Source: Dictyostelium discoideum
Lineage: Eukaryota
Direction of reading: 5' to 3'
Assembly: GCA_000004695.1 (NCBI GenBank)
Contig: CM000150.2
Location: 2,208,001 to 2,272,000, forward strand
DNA length: 64,000 bases
The notes under the pieces are model-generated. The model searched no databases, was not told where the DNA came from, and was given only the letters and a program-made list of their open reading frames with translations. Below, piece by piece: positions 9,041-61,300 of this stretch; position 1 is the stretch's first letter; each line of letters begins with the position of its first letter. A program made the position numbers and the translations under genes.

Positions 9041-10019
<979 letters not shown>

Positions 10020-16754: not shown

Positions 16755-17363
16755 CTTTTTTTTTTTTTCTTTTATCATTTTTAAAAAATAAAATTTCCAA
16801 TTCAATCAAATAATAAAGAAAATTTAAAAACTAAATAAAAATTAATTAGCATAATATTTAACCAATTTTTTATTTTTTTTTTTGTTTATTTTTGATAAGA
16901 CTTTTAAATATAAATTTTAAAAAAAAAATAATTGTGAAATTAAAACAAAATTCAAAAACAGTATAGATTAATAGGGTTGTTCGAATAATAAAAAATTTTT
17001 TTAAAAAAATTAAAAAAAAAAAAAAAAAAAAAAACCCCAAAAAATTAAAAATAAGATATTAGGGTTTTTCATGATGAAAAAACCCAATAACTTTTTTTTT
17101 TTCCAATCAATTTTTATAATATAAAAAAAAAAAAAAAACTAAAAAAATATCTTTTTTATAATAGCGCTATTATGCTTTTTTATTAAAATTAATTATTTTT
17201 TTTAATTTTTTATTACATTTTTGAAAATCAAGCAATGGCGATTTTTGGTTGGCCCCATTTCCATAAAATTTGATTTTTTTTTTTTTAATTTTTTATTACA
17301 TTTTTGGAAATCAGGCAATGGCGATTATTTTTTTTTGGTTAACCCCCTTTTTTATTTTAATCA

Positions 17364-17377
17364 CTTAAAATTTTAAG
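17364..17377. promoter_or_regulatory. 14-bp palindrome CTTAAAATTTTAAG, 107 bp upstream of the sacsin-like copy-1 ATG, inside a conserved upstream module
   Basis: Perfect palindrome. It is preceded by one or two copies of a ~30-bp motif 'CATTTTTGRAAATCARGCAATGGCGATT...GG..CCCC' (17210..17260 and 17290..17350). The same module recurs upstream of copies 2 and 3. Confidence 0.45.
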
Positions 17378-17483
17378 AGTTTAAAATAAAAAATCAAAAA
17401 TTTCTATTTTTTTTTTTTTTTAACAAAATCCTTAATTTTAATTTTAATTTTTTTTTTTTATTTTTTATTTTTAAAGAGATAAA

Positions 17484-17600
17484 ATGCCCCAAAATAAAAG
17501 TCAAACAATAAAACTATCTCATTTTTTAAGAGATAATCTTCTTAACTATCCAGTAAGTTCAAATAAATTTATTTATTTATTTATTTATTTATTTCTTTGT

Positions 17601-17643
<43 letters not shown>

Positions 17644-18060
17644 TTTTTTTTTTATCCACTTTTTACTTAATTTAATTTTTTTTTTATTTTTTTTTTTTTA
17701 TTTTTTTTCTTTAATTTTTTAATTTTTTTTTTTTCTTAATTTATTTTTTAATACTAACATGAAAAATATAATAGGAATCAAAAATATTTAGAGAATTGAT
17801 TCAAAATGCAGAAGATGCTCGAGCTGATACAGTCATAATAAAGGTTGATGAAGGCTCATATCCAAATAATGGGTTGTTAATTTCAAATGATAACCAAGAA
17901 ATTGAAAGTTCAAAAGAATTATTAGGTCCATCAATTTTAATTTATAATAATGCAACTTTTCAAGAACATGATTGGGAAGGAATTTGTCAAATTAGTCAAG
18001 GTAGTAAAAAAGAAAATTTAAAAAGTGTTGGCAATTTCGGTTTAGGTTTGTATTTTTTAT

Positions 18061-18113
<53 letters not shown>

Positions 18114-21100
18114 AAAATCTCATTCTAATTTTATTTATTTTTATTATATTGTATTATATTTTTATTTATTTTATTTTATTTTATTTATTTTTAAAATAGG
18201 TTGGAACAGTGTTTATCATATAACAGATAATCCAATTGTTTATAGTGGTAATAATGTTTGGTTCTCAGATCCAAACGAAAGAATGAGTGGTGGTTTATTC
18301 TTTGATTTAGATGACGAAGATGATTATAAGAAATGTTTTAGTTTTTTAGAGCCATTCATTCAATTTAAAGAATCAAATTGTAACCCAAAAGAATATTTTA
18401 ATGGTACAATCATTCGTCTACCATTGAGAATATTTCCAAGTGAAATCAAAAAAGGTGTATTGACAATGGATGCCATAAAGAAAATTTTAAATGAATTTTC
18501 AAAAGATATCAATGAAATATTGATTTTCTTAAAGAGTTTAGCATCAATTACCATCATTGTTAATAATCAGATAGTCAACTCTGTAAATATATCAAATTAT
18601 TCCAAAATTAAAGATCAAAGAGAAAAGGTATCTTTATTCTTAGCAAAAATTGTAGATAATGAAATGAAGGATCCAAGTAGTTCTGTAGAATTTGCTGAAA
18701 TTTTATGTAGTAAAAAATCACAATCAAATTGTGAATCTACATTTCAAATTGATTTAGAAATTTATAGAAATGGTGTCAGTCAATTAATTTCATACTTGGT
18801 TTCACAAGGTATCTATATTGATAGGAAATTAATTGAATTAGTTAAAAAGAATAAAGAAATCAAACTCATATCATATGGTGGCACTGCAATTCCAATCAAT
18901 TTAGATAGTTCAATAAAGTTCAAAGGTAAACCATTTACATTCTTACCAATTGGAGGATTGGTTTATGATATTCCTTTACATGTCAATGGTTACTTTAGAT
19001 TAAGTAATGCAAGAGATAATATCATTTATTCTCTAACTGAAGTTGAAGAAGCATCTGAATCATTATCAAAACAATGGAATATGTTTATATCAGAAACTAT
19101 TATTCCTTATTTCTATGTTAAATCGTTGCAATATTTAAAATTAAATTATGGTGGCGAACTATACAATTATTTCCCATACAAATGTAACAATCAAAATTAT
19201 CAAGGTCAAAGTCCATCATATGATATATCAATCACTACAATGAAATCAATTATCGGTGGTAAATACTTTTTAAATTACTTCAATTCCCAAGAATATTTAT
19301 CATTGAATGGTAGTTTAATTATTTCAAGTTTAGGTATGCCACCAGATTTCGTTTTAACCATATTAAATGAACGTAACATTAAAACAATCAAATTATCAAA
19401 TGAATTATTAAACCATTTTAATAATTTAAGAATTCCATTAACTTGTTATTCAAAACAATATTTATGTAGTCTATTAGTTTCGTCACCATTAAAACAATAC
19501 TCTGAAGATGTTATCAATTATATTAGTTGCACTGAAATCATTGAAGGTGGTCATTTAAATATGGTCCATATTTTACCAACAAATCCAAACAAAACTACAT
19601 TATATTATTTACAACGACCATCACTAAACCGCTTCTCATTTTATACTCATAGCTTTCTTTACACGAGTGATCAAGTCTATGATCTCTTATTCAAATATTA
19701 TGGTAATAAGTTGGCCAAACATTTAAAATTTTCTACATTACCATTAAACTTTAGACAATTAATTTCATCAATTTGTAGAAATTATATAAATATTAGAGAA
19801 ATTAAACTTTCAGATTTTATCACTAGTCTCAACTCCATCAACAACCTCCAATTTTTAAGTGATAGTATAATAACAATTTGGAATTGTATCGATGAATTAA
19901 AAAGAAAAGAAACTTTAGAATTATCTCATATCCAATCATTACAAATTATCCCATATAGATTAAGTCCAACTGAAACTGATGTCACTAGTTTTGATAAATC
20001 TTCATTGTTAATGTACAAATCAAATTTCTTACCAATTGAACCAATCTTAAACAAACTAAAAATCTATTTAATAAAAGAAGGACATCAAATCAATAGTTTA
20101 TTAGATGGAAATGCTCAAATCCCAATTTTATTAGGCTATCTTCAAAGGGTAAATTTATCATTAGACTCAAAGGAAATCGATAAATTAAGAATATTTTTAG
20201 TTGAATCAATGTTCCAAATTTCTTTATCACAAGATTATACTTCAATTTTTTATAATTTACCAATTCACCCATGCATTGGAAATAGTAACCAAAAGTTTAG
20301 TAGTATTACAACCAGTAGTTACTGTGTGGATTATGAAAAAATTGATCAATATGAAATTCCAGGATTAAAATTAATAAAGGTTAATGAATTAACAAAATAT
20401 AGAAATCTTTTCGATACAATACCAGCAAGAATCATTTTAAAAGGTGAAAAAGAAGTTTATAGATTTTATTTAATTCAAAATATTAGTTCCTTTGAATTAA
20501 ACCACTCAATTGAAATTATTAAAAACTTTTTAACTCTTTATAGTAATCATTATACCAATGATAGTGAATTAAGAAAATTACAATTTATTCCATCTGAAAA
20601 TGGTGTTTATTCAACTCCTGATTCATTTTATGTTTTAGATCCACTTGAAAAAGAATTAATTAGAAAAATCGAACCATTCAAGATTTTAAATTCATCTTTG
20701 GATGTTTTTATTGGTTATTTAAGAATATTTGGATTGGTTAATAGACCTTCAGATAGTCATATATGTTCCAAGATTTCAAGTTTACTTTCCAATCAAGATT
20801 CAATAGAAACTTATCAAACTTTTATTAATTATTTAAATCAAAGAGGTGAGAATATTACTGTTTCAATAATTAATTCTTTCAAAGATATTCCATTTATTCC
20901 ACCCAGTGAATTTGATACCTATGACGGATTTGCTCCATATAAATATAAAATTTCATTATCAGAGTGCGCATTATCAAGTTATAAAGATTGTTTATTCACT
21001 GTAAAAACTCCAATTAAAGTAATTTTCAATTACAACAACCCCATTTACAAATACCTATCATCAAATTTAAATGATAACATTATTCAGCATTTGATTAATT

Positions 21101-21853
21101 TAAATGCTATGGAATTCAATGATGAAACATCATTCAACCCCAATGAAGTTTTCGACAATACCTATAAAAGAATTGATAGTTTAATTTTTACAAATTCCAT
21201 ACTAAATGATGAACAAAAAAAGAAAATCTCTCAAATTCAATTAATTTGGTTAGATGGCCAATTAGTACCAAAAGAAAACATATTTTACAATAGTCCAAAC
21301 CCAAATTTAGATTTTGAACCTTACTTTTTTTTCACAAAACCAAAACAAGATCATCTCTTTAAATTTTTAAAATTAAAAGATAAACCAGATTTAAATGATT
21401 TCATTAGATTAATCAAATCTATTCAAGATACATACGATAAAGATAGCTCAAATTCAATAGATTTATTTGAATTGGTTATTTTCTCTCTACAAAATTCTGC
21501 ATTGAATAAAGAATTACTTCTTAATTCAAAAATAAAGTTACCAACCACTGATAATCAATTTATTGAATTTGAAAAAGTAATTTACGTTGATCATTCATGT
21601 TTACCTCAAGAATTTATTGATTTAGGACACAGTGCATTACATAATAAAATTTCTGAAAACACTGCATCAAAACTCAATATTACCAAACTTTCTCAATTGA
21701 TTCAAAGTCAGGTAGCATTTGATAATTCGTTTGGACAAAAAGAAGAATTAGTCGATCGTTTGAAACAAATTTTACATGATTATAAAGTAGAAGTATTTTT
21801 AAATGAAATGGTTCAAGTATGTATTATCTTTCAAATTAATAATTTAATTTTTA

Positions 21854-21909
<56 letters not shown>

Positions 21910-24900
21910 AAATTGCACTAATTTTTTTATTTATTTTTTTGAAATTATACTAATTTTTTTATTTTTTTTAGAATGCTCATGATGCTGGATCAACAGAAGT
22001 AAAATTAATTTTAGATTGTAATTCTTTAAAACAACAATTTTTAAAAGAAAATCCAGAGATAAGTACAGTATGCAAAGATCTTTCATCATACTTTGAAAGT
22101 TCTTTACTTTTTTATAATAATTCAGTTTTTACAGAAAAAGATATTAAAAATGTTCAAGTAATGTCAGCATCAATTAAAAAACAAGATGAAAAGTGTATTG
22201 GTCAACATGGTTTAGGTATTAATTCAATGTATTCATTCAGTGATTGTCCATGTATATTAAGTGGTGAATATTTGATGATTTTCGATCCATTCGTAACACA
22301 TATCGGTCAATCAATAAACTATTCACATGGTGCTAAATATAAAATTTCACAATACAAAACATATTTAAAATACTTTAAACCATTTCAACATTTACAATCA
22401 ATTTTAGGTTTTGATTTAGATGATGGTAAATTCAATGGAACAATCATTCGTTTACCACTTCGTAAAACATTAAATGATGATCGTTTTATTAGTCCACAGA
22501 AATGGAACGAAGTAAATGTTTTAGATTATTTAAAAAGAGTAAAAGCAAGTAATTTAGAAAATTTAATGTTTTTCACAAACATAGATTCTTTAGAGGTTTC
22601 AATATTACCAGTGGGAAGTAAAAAATTAGAACAACAAATTTCAATTCAGAAAAAATCAAGTTTATCATTAATTACAAACCAATATAATAATTTAATGAAT
22701 ATTCCAACACAAGCATCAGAATATACATTCACTATTATACCATCAGAGAAATCAAAGATAACTGAAAAATATATTATAGGTCAAGTAATTGAAGAAGATT
22801 TCAAAGATCCTTCAGAATATCCAGATAATAAAGCATTGAAATTTTTATCAATTTATAATAATGAAAAAAGAAAATCAGTTGGAGGTGTCGCATTTAAATT
22901 ACCAGATTTCTCACTTTCTGAATACAAATTCACACCAAAATCATTTTGTTATTTACCATATAAAGATTTAATTTCAAATATTCCAGTTCACATTCATGCA
23001 AACTTTTCAACAACAAGTTCACGTGATATTTTAGAAAATGCCAAATCTTCAAATTTATATAATATTGAAGAGATACTCTCTAAAAAGGTTAATCAAGTAA
23101 TACAACAATCAGATAGTTTCCAACTTTGTTGGAATCAATTAATTGTAACTGAAATTATAGCACCACTCTATATTAATACATTAACTCTTTTCAAAAACAA
23201 ATATATTAAAGGTAATGATATAGATAAAATTTCAAAATATCATAATTTCTATTACTCTCGTTTCCCAGTATTAAGTGATTCATTATCAAATCATTCAATT
23301 CTCGAAATGTTAGCAAATAAGTTTTACTCATTAGTAAATTCAGAGAATTCCGATGTATTCATCCATTACCCTGGTGTCGAAATTAAAAAGAGTCCAAAAG
23401 ATACATTTTATGCAGACTTAGGTTTCTTATCAAATCCTTATTCAGCTTCAATATTAAAGTGTATAAGTTACCTTGGTTTCAATGTTAATATTTGTCCAAC
23501 TGATATTTATTCTAGTTTTAAGTCACTACCAAACTGGTTAACAGAATATACAATATCAAATGCCTTGAAAGGAGAGAATTTAAATCCTCAAGTAATAAAT
23601 ACTCAAGATATTGCAAATATAATATTATATTTCTCAAAAATTCAATATCTAGATAACTGCCAAGTATTGATTTTCAATGATAAAACAAGGGGTTTTGTTA
23701 ATATTGAAAACAAAATAATAAACCAACTATATAACCAAACTCATTTTGAAATGACTCAAGATGTTTTAAATTTAAAATTCATTGACAGTGAACTTACCGA
23801 TATTATCAAAATGCTTATAGATCCTCTCATTTTGGATTCACTTAAAACGATTAACATCTTTGATTTCAACTATGTATGTATCCATATATCATATTATTGA
23901 TATTTTAATTTTAATATTAACATTTTTTTTTTTTTTTTTTACAAAACTAGGTTGATTTTTATTTCCACTATCTCTTACCAAATTTCGATATATTATCAGC
24001 TGAAAAAAACATTTTGTTTTTAAACAAATTATTGGAATACTTTACATTTGAAAAAAACTCTGATTATAAATCAATCAACCATCCTCTAATATCCGAAGAA
24101 AGAATAAATAAACTAAAAGGTTCAAAAGTTTTTCCTTTTGTTAAAAAGGGTGTTCAAGAGTTTTCTTTAATTTCAAAATTATCCGATCCAACATTTAAAC
24201 AATATGATTTCATATTAGATTATCCAGATTTAGAGCATTCAAAAGAAAATATCAAAATATTTAGATGTTTAGGTATTCGAGACAAATTAAAGAAAAATGA
24301 TATTGTATACCAATTCAAAAAGATTTCATCAGAAGTTTATAGTGGAAACACACCTTTGGAAACTTTAATTGAAAGAGCACGTCTATTATGGAAATCAGAA
24401 AAATGTTTAAAAGTATTTTATGAATTGTCAGAATTAAATATTGTACCAGTCAAAGAAAGTAATATCATTGGGAGTAGAAAAATATCATTAGGTTTGATGC
24501 CAATTACCAAAGTATGCCACCATCTCTATGAAGATCTTTATTTTTCAGTAAAACTACTTCAAGATGTAGATATTCCATACCCACCAGGATATAATCCAAT
24601 TGATTGTGAAAAAATATTTAAAAATTTCGTCAATCTTCTTACAAACATCAGAGATTGGAAATTGATTCAAGTAAATGGTGATTTAGTAATAGACCCCAAA
24701 ATCATACAAATGTTAATATCAATGTGTGGTCATTTAGAAAACTATACTGGTAATTTCTCATCAGAACTTGTAGAAAGAATTCAAAGTATCCCAGTATTAA
24801 ACTCTACAACATCTATTGAATTTACAAATATAGTCATGGGAACTAATGCAAATTGTTTGAGACCATTTTTCAATATTTTACCTCCAAACTTTTCAACTTT

Positions 24901-26074
24901 TAGACATTTTTTCAGTAAAATTGGTGTAATAGAATTAAATGTAAACACGATTGTAATGGGATTAAATAGATTTTTAGATGATGAGATTAATACTATCGAA
25001 GGAATTGGATCGTTAAGCTATCTTTATGGATTATTATTTAGTTTTGGTAGTGAATTGGAAACATTTAAAAATGAACACTCATCATTACCAGTTTTCACTA
25101 AAAAAGGATTTATAAAACCATCGAATCAAGTTTATTCGTTCGATGGTGTACCCATTAAAAGAATTAATACTGAATCATTTTATGAAATCCATGATTCAAT
25201 TAAAGATAATTATGAACAATTGGGTGTTTTAGAATTATCTTCAGTATTAAGAGAAGAACTAGACAATGATCTCACCAACCTTGAAAATGAAGATTTGGAG
25301 GATTCAATTGGAAAGTATTTGAATACCCTTATCAAAGAAAATCAAGAATTTATTTCAAGAGTTAATCATCTACAGTTAAGCAGAATCTTGAATATTACAG
25401 TTAAATCAGGAGACATTAGAACCACATTCATTTTAAATGAACAAAATATCACTAAATACTCAAAAACCAAATGTTATTATGATCAATCAAATTCAACTCT
25501 TTATTTAGAGAAAGAAATTACTAAAAATGAAGCATTCAATTACCTATTTAATTCCACTGGTTTGAATGTAACCTCTTCAATTGTATTAAATCTAGAAAGA
25601 GAGTTTGTAAATGATGAACCAACTGTCGATCCAGTTGATAATTTCTTGGCTCAAACTAATCAAAATGTGGTTGTTAATTTAGTTGATGACAACCATTCAG
25701 CTTTAATCCGAAAAAATCTTTGTAGACACTACAACACCATTGCACTAAGAAATCGTGAAGCTGCTGAAACTTTATTCGACAACCAATCGTTAATCAGACA
25801 ATCTATATACTTTTACTATATTTCAACAGATATGCTACTAAGAAGTCTTTTGGTTTTTTATTATGATAATAATGTTCCAGGTTCTCTTTCAATTACTCGT
25901 ATGAGAGATTTATTATCCAGAAACTCAACCACAACCATACCACACATTCCAGATCGTTTTAACAAATTCGAAGAGGCACACTTGAAAAACTCAAATATAA
26001 ATCGTAATGATCTAGTTGAATTTCGTTCAATTACTTCTCAACTATTAAACATTTCTAATCAAATGATGAATTAG
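17484..26074 (+). CDS. Sacsin-like giant protein, copy 1 (~2660 aa, 5 exons) with two GHKL/Bergerat-type ATPase sacsin-repeat-region modules
   Basis: Exons: 17484..17552, 17775..18045, 18200..21816, 21972..23873, 23951..26074. Donors GTAAGT, GTTTGT, GTATGT, GTATGT; all phases check. The N-terminus (LSHFLRDNLLNYP|ESKIFRELIQNAEDA...GNFGLG|WNSVYHITDNP...FDLDD...GTIIRLPLR) is collinear with the vertebrate sacsin SRR ([25 protein letters not shown]...GKFGLGFNSVYHITD...GTLFRLSFR). A second module starts at exon 4 (VQ|NAHDAGSTEVKLILD...IGQHGLGINSMYSFSDCP...MIFDPF...GTIIRLPLR). Confidence 0.8.
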
Positions 26075-26797
26075 TAGAATATAAATAAATAATATTTTAA
26101 CTTTCTAAATCTAAAATTATAACTATTAATCATTTTTAGAGTTTGAAATTATTTTTATCTTTTTATATACTTTTTTTGATTATTATTAGAGTGCTCAATT
26201 ATTTGTCTCTTCTGTCATCTGTTTTTTTCATTTTTCACTTTTTTCTTTTTTATTTAAATATAGAAAATTGTTTTTTTGTTTATCTCAATTTTTTTTTTTT
26301 TTTTTTAAAGTCAAGTGGTAATCAAGAAAAAAAATTAATTCAAGTTTAAATTGTGTCAACACTTAATAAAAATAGATTTATAGGTATTTAATTTTTAAAA
26401 ATCTTTATTTCCTGATAAACATGTACCTGTTAAACCTTAATAATTGTTGATTAAAAATCAGGTTAAATTAAAATTAAAATTATTGTTGAATGAATTTTAA
26501 ATTTTATATCTTTTTTGTGTATTGAAAAAATTTAAATCATTGTTTAAAAAAAAAAAAAAAAAAAAAAAATTAAGGCAAAATCAAAAAATTTAAATTTAAT
26601 GGTGGTATTGTTCTGATAATAAAAAGTTAAAAAAAATAAAAAAAAATAAAAAAAATAAAAACCAAAAGTCACTGTAAATGAGCAAAAAAAAAAAACCCCA
26701 ACATCTTTTTTTTTGACCTATTTTTGTTTTCCCCCACAAATAAAAATTTGTAATTTTTTTATTTTTTATCAGAGCATTTTTGGAAATCAGGTAACTG

Positions 26798-26828
<31 letters not shown>

Positions 26829-26853
26829 GGTAGCCCTTTTTTTATTTTAAACG

Positions 26854-26867
26854 CTTAGAATTTTAAG
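26854..26867. promoter_or_regulatory. Imperfect copy of the 14-bp palindrome (CTTAGAATTTTAAG), 272 bp upstream of the sacsin-like copy-2 ATG
   Basis: It sits within the conserved module at 26760..26870, next to 'CATTTTTGGAAATCAGGTAACTGTGATT' and 'GGTAGCCC'. Confidence 0.4.
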
Positions 26868-27138
26868 TGATTAATAATAAATAATGAAAAAAAAAAAAAA
26901 AAAAAAATTTGTATTAATTTTTTTTTTTTAACAAAAATATATATTTTTTTATATTTTTTTCTTATTTTTTTATTTTTTTATTTTTTTTATAATTTACATT
27001 AGTATTTCTAATATTTTCCATTAAATAGAAATTTTTTTTTTTTTTTTTTATTTTTTTATTTTTTTATTTTTTTTATAATTTACATTAGTATTTCTATTAT
27101 TTTCCATTAATTTGAAATTTTATTTAAATAAAGATAAA

Positions 27139-30100
27139 ATGCCCCAAAATAAAATTCAAACAATAAAACCAGCTCATTTTTTAAGAGATAATCTTCTTAA
27201 CTATCCAGTAAGGTCAAAAATTATTTATTTATTAATTTTTTTTCATCCTTTTTTTTTTTTTTTTTTTTCATTTTTCCAATTTTTTTTTTTTTTTTTTCTT
27301 TTTATTTTTTAGTACAGACATAAATAATATAATTATATTAACAAAAAAATATAATAGGAATCAAAAATATTTAGAGAATTGATTCAAAATGCAGAAGATG
27401 CTCGAGCTGATACAGTCATAATAAAGGTTGATGAAGGCTCATATCCAAATAATGGGTTATTAATTTCAAATGATAACCAAGAAATTCAAAGTTCAAAAGA
27501 ATTATTAGGTCCATCAATTTTAATTTATAATAATGCAACTTTTCAAAAACATGATTGGGAAGGAATTTGTCAAATTAGTCAAGGTAGTAAAAAAGAAAAT
27601 CTAAAAAGTGTTGGCAATTTCGGTTTAGGTTTGTATTTTTTATTTTTTTAAAAAAAAAAATAATAAAAAAAAAAAATAAAAAAATATCTTATTCTAATTT
27701 TATTTTTATTATCTTATATTACATTATTTTATGTTATTGTATTTTTATTTATTTTTAAAATAGGTTGGAATAGTGTTTATCATATAACAGATAATCCAAT
27801 TGTTTATAGTGGTAATAATGTTTGGTTTGCAGATCCAAATGAGAGAATGAGTGGTGGTTTATTCTTTGATTTGGATGATGAAGATGATTATAACAAATGT
27901 CTTAGTTTTTTAGAGCCATTCATTCAATTTAAAGAATCAAATTGTAACCCAAAAGAATATTTTAATGGTACAATCATTCGTCTACCATTGAGAATATATC
28001 CAAGTGAAATCAAAAAAGCTGTATTAACAATGGATGCCATAAAGAAAATTTTAAATGAATTTTCAAAAGATATCAATGAAATATTGATTTTCTTAAAGAG
28101 TTTAGCATCAATTACCATCATTGTTAATAACCAGATAATCAACTCGGTTTCTATATCAAATTATTCCAAAATTAAAGAGAAAAGAGAAAAGGTATCTTTA
28201 TTCTTAGCAAACATTGTAGATAATGAAATGAACAATCCAAGTAGTGCTGTAGAATTAGCTGAAATTTTATGTAGTAATAAATCACAATCAAATTGTGAAT
28301 CTACATTTCAAATTGATTTAGAAATTTATAGAAATGGTGCCAGTCAATTAATTTCATACTTGGTTTCACAAGGTATCTATATTGATAGGAAATTAATTGA
28401 ATTAGTTAAAAAGAATAAAGAAATCAAACTCATATCATATGGTGGTGTAGCAGTTCCGATCAGTTTAGATGGTCCAATAAATTTCAAAGGTAAACCATTT
28501 ACATTTTTACCAATTGGAGCATTAGTTTATGATATTCCTTTACATGTCAATGGTTACTTTAGATTAAGTAATGCAAGAGATAATATCATTTATTCTCTAA
28601 CTGAAGTTGAAGAAGCATCTGAATCATTATCAAAACAATGGAATATGTTTATATCAGAAACTATTATTCCTTATTTCTATGTTAAATCGTTGGAATATTT
28701 AAAATTAAATTATGGTGGCGAACTATACAATTATTTCCCATACAAATGTAACAATCAAAATTATCAAGGTCAAAGCCCATCATATGATATATCAATCACT
28801 ACAATGAAATCAATTATTGGTGGTAAATACTTTTTGAATTATTTCAATCCCTCAGAGTATTTACCATTGAATGGTAGTTTAATTATTTCAAGTTCAGATA
28901 TGCCACCAGATTTCATTTTAACCATATTAAAAGAACGTAACATTAAAACAATCAAATTATCAAATGAATTATTAAACCATTTTAATAATTTAAGAATTCC
29001 ATTAACTTGTTATTCAAAACAATATTTATGTAGTCTATTAGTTTCATCACCATTAAAACAATACTCTGAAGATGTTATCAATTACATTTGTTGCACTGAA
29101 ATCGTTCAAGGTGGTCATTTAAATAAAGTCAAAATTTTACCAACAAATCCAAACAAAAATACATTAGATTGTTTAAAATTATCTCAAACACTCTCAGATA
29201 TATGTAATAATACAAATCAATTCCTTTGCATGAGTGATCAAGTCTATGATCTCTTATTCGGTTACCATGGCCAAAGCTTGACCTATCATTTAAAACTATC
29301 TACAATGCCACCAAACTTTAGAAAATTTATTTCACTAATTTGTGAAAAATATTCAAATATTAAAGAAATTAAACTTTCAAATTTTCTCACTAGTCTCAAA
29401 TCTTTAAGCAGCCAGTTTTTAAATGAAAATATAATAACAGTTTGGAATTGTATCAAAGAATTAGAAAAAAATGAAACTTTACAATTATCAAAAATTAGAT
29501 CCATACCAATTGTTCCATTTAGATCGAGTACAACTCAGACTGGCGTAACTAGTTATGATAAATCTTCATTGTTAATGTACAGATCAAAATTTTTACCAAT
29601 TGAACCAATCTTAAACAAATTAAATATATATTTAGTAGAAGAAGAGCATCAATTCAATAGTTTATTAAGTGGAAATGATCAAATTTCAAAAATGTTAGAT
29701 TATCTTCAAAAGGTATATTTATCATTAGATTCAGATGAAATTGATAAATTAAGAATTTTTTTAGTCGAATTGATTCACCAAGCTTCTTTATCAAAAGCTG
29801 ATATTTCAATTTTTTATAATTTACCAATTCACCCATGCATTGGAAGCAGTGATCAAAAGTTTAGTAGTATTACATATAAAAGCATATGTGTGGACTATGA
29901 AAAAATTGATCAATATGAAATTAAAGGATTGAAATTAATAAAGGTTAATGAATTATCAAAATATAAAAGCATTGTCGATTCTATTCCAACAAAACAAATT
30001 TTTAAAGGTGAAAAACAGATTTATAGGTTTTATTTAATTCCAAACATTGGTTCCTTTGAATTAAATGTTTCAATTGAAATTATTACAAAATTTTTAACTC

Positions 30101-33100: not shown

Positions 33101-35566
33101 CAAGATATTGCAAATATAATATTATATTTCTCAAAAATGCCAGAATATCTAGATAACTGCCAAGTATTGATTTTCAATGATAAAACAAGGGGTTTTGTTA
33201 ATATTGAAAACAAAATAATAAACCAACTATATAACCAAACTCATTTTGAAATGACTCAAGATGTTTTAAATTTAAAATTCATTGACAGTGAACTTACCAA
33301 TATTATCAAAATGTGTAAAAATCCTCTCATTTTGAATTCACTTAAAACGATTAACATCTTTGATTTCAACTATGTATGTATTCATATATCATATTAACAC
33401 TTTAATTTTAATATTAATTTTTTTTTTTTTTTACAAAACTAGGTTGATTTTTATTTCCACTATCTCTTACCAAATTTCAATATATTATCAGCTGAAAAAA
33501 ATATCTCATTTTTAAACAAATTATTGGAATACTTTACATTTGAAAAGAACTATGATTTTAAATCAATAGACCATCTTCTAATATCTAAAGATAGAATAAA
33601 AATACTAAAAGGTTCAAAAGTTTTTCCTTTTGTTAAAAATGGTATTCAAGAGTTTACTTTAATTTCAAAATTATTCAATCCAACATTTAAACAACATGAT
33701 TTCATATTAGATTATCCAGATTTAGATCATTCAAAAGAAAATATCAAAATTTTTAGATATTTAGGTATCAGAGATATATTAAAGAAAAATGATATTGTAA
33801 ATCAATTCAAAAAGATATCGTCAGAAGTTTATAGTGGAAACACACCTTTGGAAACCTTAATTGAAAGAGCACGTCTATTATGGAAATCAGAAAAATGTGT
33901 CAAAGTATTTAATGAATTGATAGAATTAAATATTGTACCAGTCAAAGAAAGTAATATCACTGGTAGTAGAAAAATATCATTAGGATTGATGCCAATTACC
34001 CAAGTATGCCACCATCTCTATGAAGATCTATATTTTTCAGTAAAACTACTTCAAGATGTAGATATTAAATACCCACCAGGATATGGTCACATTGACTGTG
34101 AAAAAATATTTGAAAATTTCGTTAATCTTCTTACAAACATCATAGATTGGAAAGAAGTAAAAGTAAATGGTAGTTTAGTAATAGACCCCAAAATCATACA
34201 AATGCTAATATCAATGTGTGGTCATTTAGAAAACTATACTGGTAATTTCTCATCAGAACTTGTAGAAAGAATTCAACGTATCCCAGTATTAAACTCTACA
34301 ATATCTATTGAATTTACAAATATAGTCATGGGAACTGATGCAAATAATTTGAAACCATTTTTCAATATTTTACCTTCAAATTTTTCAACTTTTAGAAATT
34401 TTTTCAGTAAAATTGGTGTAATAGAATTAAATCTAAACACAATTGTAATGGGATTAAATAGATTTTTACATGATGAGATTGATACTGCCGAAGGAATTAG
34501 ATCGTTAAACTATCTCTATGAATTATTATTTAGTTTTGGTAGTGAATTGGAAACATTTAAAGATGAACACCCAACATTACCAGTTTTCACTAAAAAAAGA
34601 TTTATAAAACCATCCAATCAAGTTTATTCATTCTCTGGTGTACCCACCGCAAGAATTTATACTGAATCATTTTATGAAATCCATGATTCAATTAGAGATA
34701 ATTATAAACAATTGGGTGTTTTAGAATTATCTTCAATATTAAGAGAAGAACTAGACAATGAACTCACCAACCTTGAAAATGAAGATTTGGAGGATTCAAT
34801 TGGAAAATTTTTAAATACCTTTATTAAGGAAAATCAACAATTTATTTCAAGAGTTAATCATCTACAGTTGAGTCAAATCTTGAAAATTACAGTTAAATCA
34901 GGAGACATTAGAACCAAATTCATTTTAAATGGACAAGATATCACTAAAAACTCAAAAACCAAATGTTTTTATGATCAACCAAATTCAACTCTTTATTTAG
35001 AAAAAGGTATTTCTAAAAGTGAAGCATTCAATTACCTATTTAATTCCACTGGTTTGAATGTAAACTCTTCAATTGTATCAAATCTAGAAAGAGAGTTTGT
35101 AAATGATGAACCAATTGTCGATCCAGTTGATAATTTCTTGGCTCAAACTAATCAAAATGTGGTTGTTAATTCTATTGATGACAACCATACAACTTTAATC
35201 CAAAAAATTCATTGTAGACACTACAACACCATTGCACTAAGAAATCGTGAAGCTGCTGAAACTTTATTCTACAATCAATCATTAATTAGACAATCAATTT
35301 ACTTTTACTATGTTTCAACAGATATGCTACTAAGAAGTCTTTTGGTTTTTTATTTTGATAATAATATTCCAGATTCTCTTTCAATTACTCGTATGAGAGA
35401 TGTATTATCCAGAAAATCAACTACAACCATACCACACATTCCAGATCGTTTCAATGATTTCAAAGAAGCCCACTTAAAAACAACAAACATCAATAGTAAT
35501 GATCTAATTGAATTTCGTTCAATTACTTCTCAACTATTAAACATTTCTAATCAAATGATGAATTAA
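27139..35566 (+). CDS. Sacsin-like giant protein, copy 2 (~2661 aa, 5 exons)
   Basis: Exons: 27139..27207, 27358..27628, 27764..31374, 31463..33373, 33443..35566. Same splice motifs and phases as copy 1. All frames are open; no disabling mutation was seen. Confidence 0.8.
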
Positions 35567-35980
35567 TAGAAAATAAATAAATAATATATTAACTTTCTTT
35601 ACGTCAACCAAATTCAATTTATATTTTATACAAATGTATTTTTTATATTTTATATAAAAAAAAAAAAATTATGACCATTAATTATTTTAGAGTTTGTAAT
35701 TCTTTTTATTATCCTATTTTTATAATGAATTTGTTTCTGAATGAAACAATCGGTGATGGATTTAACCATACATTTGATTCAAATAAATTAGAAAATACAA
35801 TAATTAAATAAAAATAAATATATAAAAAAATTGTGTGCTTTTTTATTTTTTTTTTTTTTTTTTTTTTACATTATTGGAAATGAGGCAATAAAACCCCATT
35901 TGAATTAATTTTTTTTTTTTTTTTATTTTTGAGAATCTGGCAATTGAGATTTAACCCCCTTTTTTATTTATAATTTATCT

Positions 35981-35994
35981 CTTAAAATTTTAAG
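35981..35994. promoter_or_regulatory. 14-bp palindrome CTTAAAATTTTAAG, 147 bp upstream of the sacsin-like copy-3 ATG
   Basis: Perfect palindrome inside the conserved module at 35870..36000. The module has two copies of the GGAAAT(C/G)AGGCAAT motif and a CCCC block. Confidence 0.45.
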
Positions 35995-36140
35995 TGGTAA
36001 ATAATAAAAAAAAAAATTTTTTTTTTATTTTTTTTTTTTTTAATACTAATCATCACCACTTTTTTTTTTCTTTTTTTTTTTATTATTTACCTTAGTATTT
36101 TTATTTATTACATATTTAAATATTATTTTTAAAAGAGATA

Positions 36141-39100
36141 ATGCCCAAAACTAAAGATCAAAGACTCAAAGTATCTCATTCTTTAAGAAATAATCTTCTA
36201 AACTATCCAGTAAGTTCAAATAAATTTAAATTTTTTTTTTAAATTAAATTCTTTTTTTTTTATTTTTTTTACAAACACAAAAATTGTTTTTTTTTTTTTT
36301 TTTTTATGCTGACATGAAAAATATAATGATATTAATAAATTATAAAAAAAATATATGATAGGAATCAAAAATAGTTAGAGAGTTGATTCAAAATGCAGAA
36401 GATGCTCTAGCTGATACATTCATAATAAAGGTTGATGAAGGCTCATATCCAAATAATGGGTTATTAATTTCAAATGATAACCAAGAAATTGAAAGTTCAA
36501 AAGAATTATTAGGTCCATCAATTTTAATTTATAATAATGCAACTTTTCATGAACAGGATTGGGAAGGCATTTGTGAAATTAATCAAGGTAGTAAAAAAGA
36601 AAATTTAAAAAGTGTTGGCAATTTCGGTTTAGGTTTGTACTTTTTATTTTTTAAAAAAAAAAAATATATACATCTTATTCTAATTTTATTAATTCTTAAA
36701 ATAGGTTGGAACAGTGTTTATCATATAACAGATAATCCAATTGTTTATAGTGGTAATAATGTTTGGTTTGCAGATCCAAATGAAAGAATTGGTGGTGGTT
36801 TATTCTTTGATTTGGACGATGAAGATGATTATAACAAATGTTTTAGTTTTTTAGAGCCATTCATTCAATTCAAAGAATCAAATTGTAACCCAAAAGAATA
36901 TTTTAATGGTACAATCATTCGTCTACCATTGAGAATATATCCAAGTGAAATCAAAAAAGCTGTATTAACAATGGATGCCATAAAGAAAATTTTAAATGAA
37001 TTTTCAAAAGATATCAATGAAATATTGATTTTCTTAAAGAGTTTAGCATCAATTACCATCATTGTTAATAATCAGATAGTCAACTCTGTAAAAATAAAAA
37101 ATTATTCCAAAATTAAAGATCAAAGAGAAAAGGTATCTTTATTCTTATCAAAAATTGTAGATAATGAAATGAACAATCCAAGTAGTGCTGTAGAATTAGC
37201 TGAAATTTTATGCAGTAATAAATCACAATCAAATTGTGAATCTACATTTCAAATTGATTTAGAAATTTATAGAAATGGTGTCAGTCAATTAATTTCATAC
37301 TTGGTTTCGCAAGGTATCTATATTGATAGGAAATTAATTGAATTAGTTAAAAAGAATAAAGAAATCAAACTCATATCATATGGTGGTGTAGCAGTTCCAA
37401 TCAGTTTAGATAGTTCAATAAATTTCAAAGGTAAACCATTTACATTTTTACCAATTGGAGCATTAGTTTATGATATTCCTTTACATGTCAATGGTTACTT
37501 TAGATTAAGTAATGCAAGAGATAATATCATTTATTCGTTAACTGAAGTTGAAGAAGCATCTGAATCATTATCAAAACAATGGAATAAGTTTATATCAGAA
37601 ACTATTATTCCTTATTTCTATGTTAAATCGTTGGAATATTTAAAATCAAATTATCTTGTCAAACTATACAATTATTTCCCATACAAATGTAACAATGAAA
37701 ATTATCAAGGTCAAAGCCCAGCATATGATATATCAATCACTACAATGAAATCAATTATCGGTGGTAAATACTTTTTAAATTACTTCAATTCCCATGAATA
37801 TTTACCATTGATAGGTAGTTTAATCATTTCAAGTTCAGATATACCACCAGATTTCGTTTTAACCATCATTCGTGAACGTAACATTAAAACAATCTTTTTA
37901 TCAAATGAATTATTAAACCATTTTAATAATTTAAGAATTTCTTTACTTTGTTATTCTAAACAATATTTATGTAGTCTATTAGTTTCATCACCATTAAAAC
38001 AATACTCTGAAGATGTTATCAATTACATTTGTTGCACTGAAATCATTGAAGGTGGTCATTTAAATATGGTCAATATTTTACCAACAAATTCAAATAATAT
38101 TACATTAGATTGTTTAAAATCAACTCAAACACTCCCATATTTCCCATGCCAAAATTACCATAGTAATTTCGGCAGCCATATTAATTTTGGCATGGGACAC
38201 TCATATATAAATATAAATCAATTCCTTTACATGAGTGATCAAGTCTATGATCTCTTATTCAGGTACCATGGCCAAAGCTTGACCTTCCATTTAAAAATAT
38301 CAACAATGCCACCAAACTTTAGAAAATTTATTTCAGCAATTTGTAGAAAATATTGGAATATTGGAGAAATTAAACTTTCAAATTTTCTCACTAGTCTCAA
38401 ATCTTTAAGCAACAAATTTTTAAAAGAACATATAATAACAGTTTGGGGTTGTATCGATGAATTAGGCATAAATGAAACTTTAGAATTATCAAAAATTAGA
38501 TCCATACCTATTGTTCCATATAGATCGAGTCCAACTCAGACTGATGTCACTAGTTATGATAAATCTTCATTGTTAATGTACAGATCAAAACTCTTGCCAA
38601 TTGAACCAATATTAAACAAATTAAATATATATATAATAGAGGAAGAACATCAATTCAATAATTTATTACATGCAACGGCTTATATTTCAAAATTGTTAAA
38701 TTATCTTAAAAATGTAGATTTATCATTAGATTCAGATGAAATTGATAAATTAAGAATTTTTTTAGTCGAATCGATTCACCAAGCCTCTATTGCCGATATT
38801 TCAATTTTTTATAATTTACCAATTCACCCATGCATTGGAAACAGTGATCAAAAGTTTAGTAGTATAACTAATAATAGCATATGTGTGGATTATGAAAAAA
38901 TTGATCAATATGAAATTAAAGGATTGAAATTAATAAAGGTTAATGAATTATCAAAATATAAAAGAATTGTCGACTATATACCAACAAAACAAATTTTAAT
39001 AGGAGAAAAACAGGTTTATAGGTATTATTTAATTCAAAATATTAGTTCCTTTGAATTAAATGTTTCAATTGAAATTATTACAGAATTTTTAACTCTTTAT

Positions 39101-42100
39101 GGTAATCATTATATCAATGATGGTGCATTAAGAAAATTTAAATTTATTCCATCTGAAAATGATGTTTATTCAACTCCTGATTCATTTTATGTTTTAAGTC
39201 AACTCGAAAGGGATTTAATAAGAAATTTCGAACCATCTAAAATTTTAAATCAATCTTTGGATGGTTTAACTGGTTATTTATCTAAATTTGGCTTAAAATT
39301 TAAACCATCAGATAAACATATATGTTCAAAGGTTATTGATTTTCTTTCAAATCAAGATTCAATAGAAACCTATCAAACTTTTATGGATTATTTAAATCAA
39401 AGAGGTGAGAATATTGGTGATTCATTAATTGATTCTTTCAAAGATATCCCATTTATTCCATCCAGTGAATTCGATACCTATGATGGATTTGGCTCAAATG
39501 AATCTAAAATTTCTTTATCAGAGTGTGCATTATCAAGTTATAAAGATTGTTTATTCACTGTAAAAACTCCAATTAAAGTAATCAAAAATTACAAAAACCC
39601 CATTAACAAATACCTATCATCAAATTTAAATGATAACATTATTCAGCATTTGATTAATTTAAATTCTATGGAATTCAATGATGAAACATCATTCGATCCA
39701 AATATAATTTTCAACAATACCTATAAAAGAATTGATGATTTAATTAAAACTTCCAAACTAAATGATGAACAAAAAAAGAAAATCTCTCAAATTCAATTAA
39801 TTTGGTTAGATGGCCAATTAGTACCAAAAGAAAAAATATTTTATAATAGTCCAAACCCAAATTTAGATTTTAAACCTTACTTTTTTATCACCAAACCTAC
39901 ACAAGAACATCTCTTTAAATTTTTAAAATTAAAAGAAATACCAGATTTAAATGATTTCATTAGATTAATCAAATCTATTCAAGATACATATGATAAAGAG
40001 AGCTCAAATTCAATAGATTTATTTGAATTGGTTATTTATTCTCTCCAAAACCCTGCATTCAATAAAGAATTACTTATTGATTCAAAAATAAAATTACCAA
40101 CCACTGATAATCAATTTGTTGAATTTGAAAAAGTAATTTACATTGATCATTCATGTTTACCTCAAGAATTCATTGATTTAGGACACAGTGCATTACATAA
40201 TAAAATTTCTGAAAACACTGCATCAAAACTCAGTATTACAAAACTTTCTCAATTGATTCAAAGTCAAGTAGCATTTGAGAATTCATTTGGACAAAAAGAA
40301 GAATTAGTCGATCGTTTGAAACAAATTTTACGTGATTATAAAGTAGAAGTATTTTTAAACGAAATGGTTCAAGTATGTATTATCTTTCAAATTATTGATT
40401 TAATCATTACTCTTTTTTTTTTGAAATTGTACTAATTTTTTTTATTTTTTTTTAGAATGCTCATGATGCTGGATCAACAGAAGTAAAATTAATTTTAGAT
40501 TGTAATTCTTTAAAACAACAATTTTTAAAAGAAAATCCAGAGATAAGTACACTATGTAAAGATCTTCCATCATACTTTGAAAGTTCTTTACTTTTTTATA
40601 ATAATTCAGTTTTTACAGAAAAAGATATTAAAAATGTTCAAGTAATGTCAGCATCAATTAAAAAACAAGATGAAAATTCTATTGGTCAACATGGTTTAGG
40701 TATTAATTCTATGTATTCATTCAGTGATTGTCCATGTATATTAAGTGGTGAATATTTGATGATTTTCGATCCATTCGTAACACATATCGGTCAATCAATA
40801 AACTATTCACATGGTGCTAAATATAAAATTTCAGAATACAAAACATTTTTAAAATACTTTAAACCATTTCAACATTTACAATCAATTTTAGGTTTTGATT
40901 TAGATGATGGTAAATTTAATGGAACAATCATTCGTTTACCACTTCGTAAAACATTAAATGATGATCGTTTTATTAGTCCACAGAAATGGAACGAAGTAAA
41001 TGTTTTAGATTATTTAAAAAGAGTAAAAGCAAGTAATTTAGAAAATTTAATGTTTTTCACCAACATAGATTCTTTAGAGGTTTCAATATTACCAGTGGGA
41101 AGTAAAAAATTAGAACAACAAATTTCAATTCATAAAGAATCAAGTTTATCATTAATTACAAACCAATATAATAATTTAATGAATATTCCAACACAAGCAT
41201 CAGAATATACATTCACTATTATTCCATCAGAGAAATCAAAGATAACTGAAAAATATATTATAGGTCAAGTAATTGAAGAAGATTTCAAAGATCTATCAGA
41301 ATATCCAGATAATAAAGCATTGAAATTTTTATCAATCTATAATAATGAAAAAAGAAAACCAGTTGGAGGTGTCGCATTTAAATTAATAGATTTCTCACTT
41401 CCTGAATACAATTTCACACCAAAATCATTTTGTTTCTTGCCATATAAAGATTTAATTTCAAATATTCCAGTTCACATTCATGCAAACTTTTCAACAACAA
41501 GTTCACGTGATATTTTAGAAAATGTCAAATCTTCAAATTTATATAATATTGAAGAGATACTCTCTAAAAAGGATAATCAAGTAATACAAACAGATAGTTT
41601 ACAACTTTGTTGGAATCAATTAATTGTAACTGAAATTATAGCACCACTCTACATTAATACATTAACTCTTTTCAAAAACAAATATATTAAAGGTAATGAT
41701 ATAGATATAATTTCAAAATATCATGATTTCTATTACTCTCGTTTCCCAGTATTAAGTGATTCGTTGTCAAATCATTCAATTCTCGAAATGTTAGCAAATA
41801 AGTTTTACTCATTATTAGATTCAGATGTATTCATCCATTACCCTGGGGTTGAAATTAAAAAGAATCATAAAGATACATTTTATGCAGAGTTGAGTTTTTT
41901 ATCAAATTCTTGTTCAGTTTCAATACTAAAGTGTATTAGTCACATTGGTTTCAATGTTAAGGTTATTCCGTTTAAAATTTTTTTTAGTTTTAAGTCACTA
42001 CCAAACTGGTTAACAGAATATACAATATCAATGGCCTTGAAAGGAGAGGATTTAAATCCTCAAGTAATAAATACTCAAGATATTGCAAATTTAATATTAT

Positions 42101-44535
42101 ATCTCTCAAAAATGCCAGAATATCTAGATAACTGCCAAGTATTGATTTTCAATGATAAAACAAGGGATTTTCTAAATATTGAAAACAAAATAATAAACCA
42201 ACTATATAACCAAACTCATTATGAAATGACTCAAGATGTTTTAGATTTAAAATTCATTGATAGAGAACTTACCGATATTATCAAAATGCTTTTAGATCCT
42301 CTCATTTTGGATTCACTTAAAACGATTAACATCTTTGATTTCAACTATGTATGTATTCATATATCATATTAATATTTTTTTAATTATACATTAACATTTT
42401 TTTTACAAAACTAGGTTGATTTTTATTTCCACTATCTCTTACCAAATTTCAATATATTATCAGCTGAAAAAAATATTTCATTTTTAAACAAATTATTGGA
42501 ATGCTTTACATTTGAAAAGAACTCTGATTTTAAATCAATCAACCATCCTCTAATATCTAAAGAAAGAATTAAAATACTAAAAGGTTCAAAAGTTTTTCCT
42601 TTTGTTAAAAACGGTATTCGAGAGTTTACTTTAATTTCAAAATTATTCAATCCAACATTTAAACAACATGATTTCATATTAGATTATCCAGATTTATATC
42701 ATTCAAAAGAAAATATTGAAATATTTAGATATTTAGGTATCAGAGATAAATTAAAGAAAAACGATATTGTAAATCAATTCAAAAAGATCTCATCAGAAGT
42801 TTATAGTGAAAATACACCTTTGAGCATTTTAATTGAAAGAGCACGTCTATTATGGAAATCAGAAAAATGTGTCAAAGTATTTAATGAATTGTTAGAATTA
42901 AATATTGTACCAGTCAAAGAAAGTAATATCATTGGCAGTAGAAAAATATCATTAGGATTGATGCCAACTACCGAAGTATGCCAACATCGCTATGAAGATC
43001 TTTATTTTTCAGTAAAACTACTTCAAGATGTAGATATTAAATACCCACCAGGATATAATCAAATTGATTGTGAAAAAATATTTGAAAATTTCGTTAATCT
43101 TCTTACAAACATCAGAGATTGGAAATTGATTCAAGTAAATGGTAATTTAGTTACAGACCCCAAAATCATACAAATGTTAATATCGATGTGTAGTCATTTG
43201 GAAAACTATACAGGAAATTTCTCATCAGAACTTGTAGAAAGAATTCAACGTATCCCAGTATTAAACTCTACAATATCTATTGAATTTACAAATATAGTCA
43301 TGGGAACTGATGCAAATAATTTGAAACCATTTTTCAATATTTTACCTCCAAATTTTTCAACTTTTAGACATTTTTTCAGTAAAATTGGTGTAATAGAATT
43401 AAATCTAAACACAATTGTAATGGGATTAAATAGATTTTTACATGATGAGATTAATACTACCGAAGGAATTAGATCGTTAAACTATCTTTATGAATTATTA
43501 TTTAGTTTTGGTAGAGAATTGGAAACATTTAAAAATGAACACTCACCATTACCAGTTTTCACTAAAAAAGGATTTATAAAACCATCGAATCAAGTTTATT
43601 TATTCGATGGTGTACCCATTAAAAGAATTAATACTACATCGTTTTATGAAATCCATGATTCAATTAGAGATAATTATGAACAATTGGGTGTTTTACAATT
43701 ATCTTCAGTTTTAAGAGAAGAATTAGACAATGAACTCACCAACCTTGAAAATGAAGATTTGGAGAATTCAATTGGAAAGTTTTTAAATACCCTTATCAAA
43801 GAAAATCAAGAATTTATTTCAAGAGTAAATCATCTTCAGTTAAGCGGAATCTTGAATATTACAGTTAAAACAGGATATATTAGAACTAAATTCATTTTTA
43901 ATCGAAAAGATATCACTAAAACCTCAAAAACCAAATGCTTTTATGATCATTTAAATTCAACTCTTTATATAGGCATAGAAAAAGGTATTACCATAAGTAA
44001 AGCATTCAAATACCTATTTAACTCCACTGGTTTGAATGTAAACCCCTCAATGGTATCAAATCTAAAAAGAGAGTTTGTTAATGATGAACCAACTGATGAT
44101 AATTTATTCTTGACTCTAAACGTTGTTAATTTTGTTGATGTTAACCAAACAAAAATCCAAAAAAATCAATGTAGACACTACAACACCATTGCATTAAGAA
44201 ATTTTCAACTTGCTGATACTTTACTCAACAATCAATCATTTATAAGAGAAGCCTCATACCATTACTATGTTTCAACAGAAATGTCAATGAGAAGTCTTTT
44301 GGTTTTTAATTATAATGATATCCCCTATGCTTTTTCAATTACTCGTTTAAGAGGTTTATTATCTAGAATAAGTATTACAACTGAAACCATACCACAGATT
44401 CCAGATCTTTACAATAATTACAGACACACTCATTTAAAAAATGAAGAAATCAATCGTAGGGAACTATTAAGATTTCGTTCAATTTCAAATCAATTATTAA
44501 ACATCTCTAATCAAAAACTAAATGAAAATATATAA
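36141..44535 (+). CDS. Sacsin-like giant protein, copy 3 (~2673 aa, 5 exons), the most divergent copy
   Basis: Exons: 36141..36209, 36362..36632, 36705..40372, 40456..42348, 42415..44535. Intron 2 (36633..36704) is 72 nt and stop-free, which is why the track ORF 36383..40435 reads through it. Exon 1 is diverged (MPKTKDQRLKVSHSLRNNLLNYP), there is a 54-bp insertion with an inverted repeat in exon 3, and the C-terminal ~150 aa differ. Confidence 0.78.
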
Positions 44536-44671
44536 ATAATAATAAAAATAATAATTTAATTTTTAAATTTAATAAATGTGTATTTATTTATTTTTTTTTT
44601 TTTATTATTATTTTTTTTTTTTTTTTTGAAAAAATAATAGGAATAAAATATAAACTACCTATATAAATTTT

Positions 44672-46746: not shown

Positions 46747-46749
<3 letters not shown>
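44863..46749 (-). CDS. GT13-family glycosyltransferase (GlcNAc-transferase I / MGAT1-like), type II membrane protein, ~628 aa
   Basis: Single exon. The real ATG is at 46749 (MIIDSKNLITNKKRLIFGAVFILLIFYFIFSS is a signal anchor). The track ORF start at 46881 merely runs through the upstream poly-T. GnT-I catalytic motifs: DHPPIAIVTSNKPKHLDRLL, VIFLEEDLIMSPDSLEYF, FGISAWNDNGF, DHFGGLGFLISREIY..IEPNW, SCIFPEIPRSQH. A C-terminal Cys-containing extension is present. Confidence 0.8.
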
Positions 46750-46816
<67 letters not shown>

Positions 46817-57503: not shown

Positions 57504-57531
57504 TTGGCCATTCTTTCGAATTCTTAAAAAG

Positions 57532-60379: not shown

Positions 60380-60434
<55 letters not shown>

Positions 60435-61242: not shown

Positions 61243-61300
<58 letters not shown>

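Follow-up and report, generated by a model that had tools for sequence, protein, structure and literature searches.

The 64,000-nucleotide stretch of Dictyostelium discoideum DNA analyzed here (assembly GCA_000004695.1, contig CM000150.2, positions 2,208,001 to 2,272,000 of the forward strand; hereafter the window, from whose first letter all coordinates are counted) carries three consecutive giant genes of the sacsin family. We consider it reasonably probable that these are three functional paralogues descended from one ancestral gene, located upstream of a GNT-I family glycosyltransferase gene, that was duplicated in tandem within the D. discoideum lineage. Each protein would consist of two Hsp90-like sacsin modules joined by a long variable linker, then a conserved post-repeat module and, at its end, a divergent HEPN domain.

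Three intact genes in a tandem array

The array consists of three direct head-to-tail units, at approximately 17463-26114, 27051-35598 and 36060-44572, which share 84-95% nucleotide identity in a self-BLASTN and repeat search of the window. Their start codons are 9,655 and 9,002 bp apart, with inter-unit spacers of 1,064 and 574 bp. By direct reading of the junctions in the window sequence, we built five-exon GT-AG models for all three units, each on the forward strand and each giving an uninterrupted coding sequence. Copy A (DDB_G0268848, 2660 aa, 17484..26074) has exons at 17484-17552, 17775-18045, 18200-21816, 21972-23873 and 23951-26074 and is free of internal stops; copy B (DDB_G0268850, 2661 aa, 27139..35566) has exons at 27139-27207, 27358-27628, 27764-31374, 31463-33373 and 33443-35566; and copy C (DDB_G0268852, 2673 aa, 36141..44535) has exons at 36141-36209, 36362-36632, 36705-40372, 40456-42348 and 42415-44535. 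In this AT-rich window (GC 17-31%), GC content is 26% in the exons and 7-12% in the introns. The four introns measure 222, 150 and 152 nt, 154, 135 and 72 nt, 155, 88 and 83 nt, and 77, 69 and 66 nt in copies A, B and C, respectively, and preserve the reading frame in every copy. The translations are 100% identical to the D. discoideum AX4 proteins with these identifiers; the models therefore reproduce the public annotation, in which the three genes are labeled hypothetical (NCBI) or Sacsin/Nov domain-containing (UniProt).

A preliminary description of this DNA, made from the letters alone, had proposed a triplication of intact giant genes with a common five-exon structure, conserved splice sites and conserved upstream modules, and our analysis agrees on each of these points. 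The upstream modules are G/C-containing boxes, TTGGAAATCAGGCAA ... AACCCCCTTTTTTATT ... CTTAAAATTTTAAG, located by a three-way upstream alignment and pattern search at 17221..17377 in copy A, 26780-26867 in copy B and 35874-35994 in copy C (forward strand), 107-272 bp ahead of each ATG. Rfam and tRNA scans detected no RNA gene within the array.

Two introns have individual features. Intron 3 of copy A contains a run of about 50 T residues (21857-21908) that is not in copies B and C and accounts for much of its excess length. Intron 2 of copy C (36633-36704) is 72 nt long, a multiple of three, and stop-free, such that an open reading frame (ORF) at 36362-40432 reads through it; its retention would insert 24 residues into the Gly-rich ATP-binding loop with the frame unbroken.

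Two sacsin repeat modules retain the proposed ATP-site residues

Sacsin repeat module 1, a Hsp90-like N domain followed by a middle-like domain, spans aa 8-440 of copy A (17505..19179; 27160-28743 in copy B and 36162-37684 in copy C; forward strand, ranges including introns 1 and 2). Module 2 spans aa 1291-1740 of copy A (21730..23234; 31288-32728 in copy B and 40286-41715 in copy C; forward strand, ranges spanning intron 3). The Pfam SACS profile (PF25794) matches in two stretches with an E value of 1.1e-118 and 395.9 bits against a cut-off of 32.8, the second stretch of copy A being aa 1294-1541. The crystal structures of sacsin SR1 in the PDB (5v44-5v47) are matched by aa 9-235 with an E value of about 1e-35, and NCBIfam NF047352, the sacsin N-terminal ATP-binding-like domain, scores 113.5 bits against a cut-off of 50. 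In BLASTP against human sacsin, aa 8-420 and 1291-1719 align, at 23-31% identity, and no other region does; each aligned stretch takes in the Hsp90-like N domain and the middle-like domain after it. Among generic GHKL profiles and structures, HATPase_c_3 scored only E 0.013, under its cut-off, and Hsp90 N-domain structures scored E 0.12-0.9. Membership in the GHKL (Bergerat) superfamily is assigned because the matched sacsin SR1 structure is described as Hsp90-like (PMC9880540). Together, the SACS, SR1 and NF047352 matches support the identification of both modules as sacsin-type GHKL ATPase modules, as the preliminary description had predicted from motifs that are all present in the translations.

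The sacsin residues proposed for ATP binding and hydrolysis have been listed by Perna et al. (PMC9880540, Table 1). In both modules of copies A, B and C, these residues are kept, or are substituted as in another sacsin repeat or in ways that the same source tolerates. Those conserved are E30, N34, D37, N81, F85, D89, K101, G109, G112, G114, T183 and R385 in module 1 and E1316, N1320, D1323, N1368, F1372, D1376, K1388, G1396, G1399, G1401, T1476 and R1670 in module 2. They include the catalytic Glu (E30/E1316), the Mg-binding Asn (N34/N1320), the Gly-rich loop (G109-G114/G1396-G1401) and the middle-domain Arg equivalent to R474 (R385 and R1670). The modules are putative active ATPases.

One detail of the proposed gene structure needs correction. 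The second domain had been thought to start exactly at an exon boundary. Exons 1-3 comprise 1319 codons; exon 4 therefore begins at Asn1320, within ATP-binding motif I, while the catalytic Glu1316 is encoded in exon 3 and the Pfam match begins at residue 1294.

A conserved post-repeat module precedes a divergent HEPN tail

The first 550 or so of the 707 residues encoded by exon 5 form a post-repeat module (aa 1954-2503 of copy A, 23951..25600; 33443-35092 in copy B and 42415-44070 in copy C; forward strand), identified by profile search and homologous to the matching region of dictyostelid sacsin-like proteins of 2,533-2,733 aa. A profile of the exon 5 region found 49 proteins among 1.84 billion representatives. 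These include sacsin-like proteins of 4,100-4,750 aa, matched just past the last repeat, as well as proteins of about 1,000-1,750 aa that end in RING, U-box or HEPN domains, some of them from other Amoebozoa. Since the post-repeat module is shared and the ends differ, the family looks modular, with a putative layout of ATPase repeats, a conserved post-repeat module and a variable end domain. The core of the post-repeat module (exon 5 residues 220-550) was modeled by AlphaFold2 (AF2) with a predicted local distance difference test (pLDDT) score of 80-92, and a Foldseek search of this core against the PDB gave no match (all E > 0.5).

The tail of each protein (aa 2544-2660 of copy A, 25721..26071; 35213-35563 in copy B and 44170-44532 in copy C; forward strand) is probably a HEPN domain in divergent form. 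Pfam HEPN is matched by the tail of copy C and by those of its counterparts from D. citrinum, D. dimigraforme, D. firmibasis and D. purpureum, all in one register, at E 0.003-0.017, with scores of 15.7-18 bits that are all under the gathering score of 22. When the tails were better delimited, hhalign against the HEPN tails of other dictyostelids and of animal sacsins gave P = 0.0009-0.006 over the whole domain; a first hhalign with the last 170 aa had returned nothing (probability 0.4%), and a search of PDB sequences with the tail profile found no HEPN. The AF2 model of the copy C tail has five helices, with a pLDDT of 85.5 and a predicted template modeling score (pTM) of 0.82, and was obtained from an alignment of close relatives only, with no canonical HEPN sequence. 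In an AF2 model of the entire 707-aa exon 5 region, the tail reached a pLDDT of only 30-58. Sequence evidence for HEPN is weak but consistent, and fold evidence is strong. The tail portion of a MAFFT alignment was discarded, as it placed the tails against the wrong region of the other dictyostelid proteins.

The Rx4-6H endoribonuclease (endoRNase) motif was not found in the helix-4 region, where copies A and B have DRFNKFEEAH (R-x7-H) and copy C has YRHTH; the Arg of this region is not conserved among the copies. A non-catalytic HEPN is therefore predicted. The C-terminal region had been described as lacking a recognizable DnaJ or HEPN domain. The part concerning DnaJ stands, as neither Ubl nor DnaJ domains gave a Pfam match at E <= 1 in the D. 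discoideum proteins; the part concerning HEPN does not, and the divergent HEPN tail makes the proteins more sacsin-like than had been supposed.

The array arose recently and turns over

A single gene occupies this position in each of D. citrinum, D. firmibasis and D. dimigraforme, immediately upstream of the GNT-I gene (44863-46881, reverse strand, in the window). Synteny across species was anchored on this gene, on a spermine synthase gene (9041-9688, reverse strand) and on a cytochrome P450 gene (48461-49759, forward strand). Neighbor-joining trees for exons 3, 4 and 5 cluster every intact D. discoideum copy with the others, apart from D. citrinum, which places the duplications within the D. 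discoideum lineage; a truncated pseudogene copy, described below, falls outside the D. discoideum cluster in the exon 4 and exon 5 trees. On the evidence of these trees and of gene order, the array derives from a single ancestral gene.

Copy number varies among assemblies labeled D. discoideum, with three units in AX4 and four in each of GCA_054859355.1 and GCA_054859385.1. The comparison across strains and related dictyostelids that the preliminary description had recommended thus gives a single copy in three sister species and 3-4 units in D. discoideum. Positional orthologues can be identified, yet their position in the trees varies by exon. In one assembly, for instance, the last copy clusters with copy 2 when exon 3 is used, and the exon 5 tree joins it to the other last copies. 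Synonymous divergence (Ks) varies from 0.03 to 0.43 along the gene. Together, these two observations indicate exchange between copies, which have mosaic exons. In D. purpureum, a separate tandem array at a different locus contains at least three full genes and a truncated fourth; its copies are close to one another and only 33% identical to the D. discoideum proteins. Gene calls for the fourth copy (contig GL871052.1) consist of a 2190-aa protein and, apart from it, a C-terminal fragment of 328 aa, so that this copy may be split or degraded.

The divergence of about 10% at the protein level between D. discoideum assemblies could be taken for extreme polymorphism. We tempered this interpretation: flanking non-coding DNA is 91-93% identical between assemblies, and neighboring fast-evolving genes are 91-95% identical, so the assemblies in question have simply diverged from AX4. 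Identity nevertheless remains at 98-100% for conserved enzymes.

Purifying selection is significant but weak

The AX4 paralogues have Ks values of 0.11-0.15 and a ratio of nonsynonymous to synonymous divergence (Ka/Ks) of 0.56-0.59. Ka/Ks between positional orthologues of different assemblies is 0.42-0.50, and Fisher tests against neutrality are significant for copy 1, copy 2 and the last copy (p <= 6e-6). Pooled Ka/Ks was recomputed without the out-of-frame exon 3 of one unit (FIW_2) and the frameshifted end of another (FIR_2), which had contaminated the first run. By region, the pooled ratio of nonsynonymous to synonymous differences (pN/pS) is 0.35 and 0.41 for the ATPase modules, 0.61 for the linker that joins them, 0.52-0.63 past module 2 and 0.68 for the tail. 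The estimates point to purifying selection that is real but weak, with the ATPase modules most constrained and the linker and tail evolving fastest.

Divergence is locally concentrated, as had been noted earlier. Windows of 60 codons with pN/pS of 1.25-1.77 occur at aa 633-690, 1081-1140, 1829-1885 and 2221-2280 of copy A, a descriptive result rather than a formal site test. In copy C, an insertion of about 20 residues, PYFPCQNYHSNFGSHINFGMGHSYININ, lies in the most variable linker patch (about aa 640-670, window 38100-38220; pooled pN/pS 1.73).

Compared to D. citrinum, spermine synthase is 96%, P450 98.8% and GNT-I 92% identical, versus 69-80% for the sacsin-like exons. In the comparison with the other D. 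discoideum assemblies, identity is 98-100% for these enzymes and at best 88-91% for the sacsin-like exons. The sacsin-like genes are thus under constraint, yet their rate of evolution is several times that of the neighboring enzymes.

Other genes in the window

A tandem pair of 581-aa ORFs at 13088-14833 and 15009-16754 (forward strand) shares about 84% DNA identity and has no Pfam match. These ORFs begin with a hydrophobic, signal-peptide-like segment, MKYISFFVTLILI. D. citrinum and D. firmibasis have the pair as well, and it evolves fast, with 75-77% identity to D. citrinum. Two adjacent subtilase (Peptidase_S8) genes at 50756-52867 and 53646-55586 (forward strand) are about 38% identical to each other and 91-95% identical between assemblies. 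The sole Rfam and ARAGORN match in the window is a tRNA-Asp (GTC) at 57531-57603 (reverse strand), and a 982-aa ORF at 58964-61912 (forward strand) encodes Kelch repeats and a C-terminal C3HC4 RING finger.

Discussion

The D. discoideum proteins share with vertebrate sacsin (SACS), the protein of ARSACS (autosomal recessive spastic ataxia, Charlevoix-Saguenay type), repeated modules of Hsp90-like N and middle-like domains with the proposed ATP-binding and catalytic residues, a post-repeat module that also matches the region beyond the last repeat in sacsin-like proteins of 4,100-4,750 aa, and a HEPN domain without the RNase motif, which human sacsin has likewise lost (Anantharaman et al., PMC3710099). 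They differ in having two repeat modules rather than three, in their length of about 2,660 aa compared to about 4,580 aa, in an identity of 23-31% that is confined to the repeat modules, and in their arrangement as a recent tandem array. The full vertebrate architecture of Ubl, three repeats, XPCB, DnaJ and HEPN is not present; two repeat modules align. Closer in organization are the sacsin-like proteins of Heterostelium album, Tieghemostelium lacteum and Polysphondylium violaceum (2,533-2,733 aa), which have the same size and order of parts, with two SACS modules, a homologous post-repeat module and a clear C-terminal HEPN. Slime-mold sacsin homologues with HEPN have been noted before (PMC3710099). 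These proteins are only 26-29% identical to the D. discoideum copies and, unlike them, have a HEPN that has not diverged under the Pfam threshold; in alignment, the proteins of the D. discoideum group lack about 100 aa between the post-repeat module and HEPN. Sacsin-family proteins ending in RING or U-box domains in other Amoebozoa (e.g., Soliformovum and Pelomyxa) have the post-repeat module in common and, where the sequence is complete, the SACS modules, but carry an E3-ligase end domain in place of HEPN.

By analogy with the mechanism proposed for sacsin, each protein could be a large scaffold, chaperone-like or clamp-like, that is driven through conformational cycles as its two GHKL modules bind and hydrolyze ATP. 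Given the loss of the RNase motif, the HEPN tail would probably serve in dimerization or in nucleotide or RNA binding, not in cleavage. The rapid evolution of the linker and tail suggests changing partners or substrates, and the array itself may evolve by birth and death together with exchange between copies.

An alternative interpretation is that the array is a conflict or immunity locus, in which sacsin-type ATPase sensors or switches are coupled to a HEPN effector. It would then resemble Tiamat, a single prokaryotic anti-phage gene reported with a PD-(D/E)XK nuclease domain (bioRxiv 10.1101/2024.10.26.620412), and virus-induced animal sacsin-like genes, and its copy-number change and fast-evolving linker and tail would reflect an arms race with pathogens or selfish elements. 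Both ATPase modules match Tiamat TmtA, with hits to six PADLOC TmtA profiles (best E 4e-65 over aa 19-390), and the link to defense ATPases suggested in the preliminary description thus holds at the domain level. HEPN is typical of conflict effectors, sacsin-like proteins fused to DEATH domains are known (PMC3710099), and in a fish, poly(I:C) induces a sacsin-like gene (PMC11357929). Also in favor of this interpretation are the 3-4 units per assembly, the independent tandem arrays in D. purpureum, an identity of 73% to D. citrinum where neighboring enzymes have 92-99%, and the short windows with elevated pN/pS. However, Ka/Ks is below 1 both overall and per domain, the HEPN has no conserved Rx4-6H motif, and synonymous divergence, too, is raised in the most divergent region, a pattern expected of older or unconverted sequence and not of selection. 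The TmtA match is limited to the ATPase module (profile positions 25-320 of 1,370), no PD-(D/E)XK nuclease domain was found in the D. discoideum proteins, and the genes are eukaryotic and intron-bearing. The relation to TmtA is, as judged from the extent of the match, domain homology and not membership. We therefore regard a conflict locus as possible but unlikely.

Several observations weigh against three functional paralogues. The third unit of GCA_054859385.1 is disrupted by frameshifts, lacks aa 1615-1972 and 2305-2637 through two internal deletions, and is a pseudogene unless it is misassembled. Two further units in these assemblies contain a frameshift: exon 3 of FIW_2 (97 stops) and the truncated C-terminus of FIR_2 are out of frame relative to the AX4 exons and are nevertheless annotated as intact, which points either to indels in the assemblies or to genuine frameshifts that the gene caller bypassed. 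A Ka/Ks near 0.5 is high and, with the degraded unit and the two frameshifted ones, suggests that part of the array may be dispensable. ATP binding by sacsin modules is itself debated (PMC9880540). The HEPN assignment depends on the predicted model of copy C, and Pfam HEPN does not match copies A and B at all. A full-text literature search with the three gene identifiers found no paper.

Some of these points would be explained if the copies were redundant recent duplicates under relaxed constraint and drifting to loss, the function of one copy being enough, as in the single-copy sister species. The Ka/Ks of 0.42-0.59 is far above the level implied for the neighboring enzymes by their near-identity between assemblies, the degraded and frameshifted units are as expected, units number three in AX4 and four elsewhere, and related species have one copy. 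On the other hand, the three AX4 copies retain 8-kb open frames and 26% GC coding sequence at Ks values of 0.11-0.15, every comparison of positional orthologues (copies 1, 2 and last) gives a Ka/Ks significantly below 1, and the ATP-site residues are intact in six of six modules. We consider general redundancy improbable. The preliminary description of a maintained array rather than decaying duplicates is accurate for AX4, where the copies are intact and under purifying selection, but not for the variable number of units, the degraded unit and the mosaic exons; at the species level, the array seems to turn over rather than to be stably maintained. An assembly artefact, considered since 9-kb tandem repeats are error-prone in assemblies, has nothing in its favor and was rejected as having a negligible chance of being correct, because the units differ by 5-16% in sequence and in intron and spacer lengths and because two independent assemblies contain tandem arrays at the same position.

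The genes studied here were already annotated, their family is known, and homologues in slime molds had been noted; what is new is the D. discoideum-specific array and its turnover, the intact ATP-site residues in all six modules, and the divergent sacsin-type HEPN. As matters stand, the genes form an already annotated family whose birth-and-death history is ordinary. It is a rather doubtful prospect that the array belongs to amoebal innate immunity or conflict, such that a sacsin/Tiamat-type ATPase switch with HEPN is a defense architecture common to bacteria and eukaryotes. If this were true, an arms race would have left its signature in the changing copy number, the mosaic exchange and the hypervariable patches of the linker, and the cellular role of the sacsin family could be studied in D. 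discoideum, where genetics is tractable. Sacsin underlies the human ataxia ARSACS, and how it works at the molecular level is still under debate. A two-module relative of smaller size, with every proposed ATP-site residue and a sacsin-type HEPN tail, could serve as a model in a genetically tractable amoeba. The recent expansion of these genes, their variation in copy number and the homology of their ATPase module to a bacterial anti-phage protein provide a testable case that some members of the sacsin family act in conflict and not in housekeeping.

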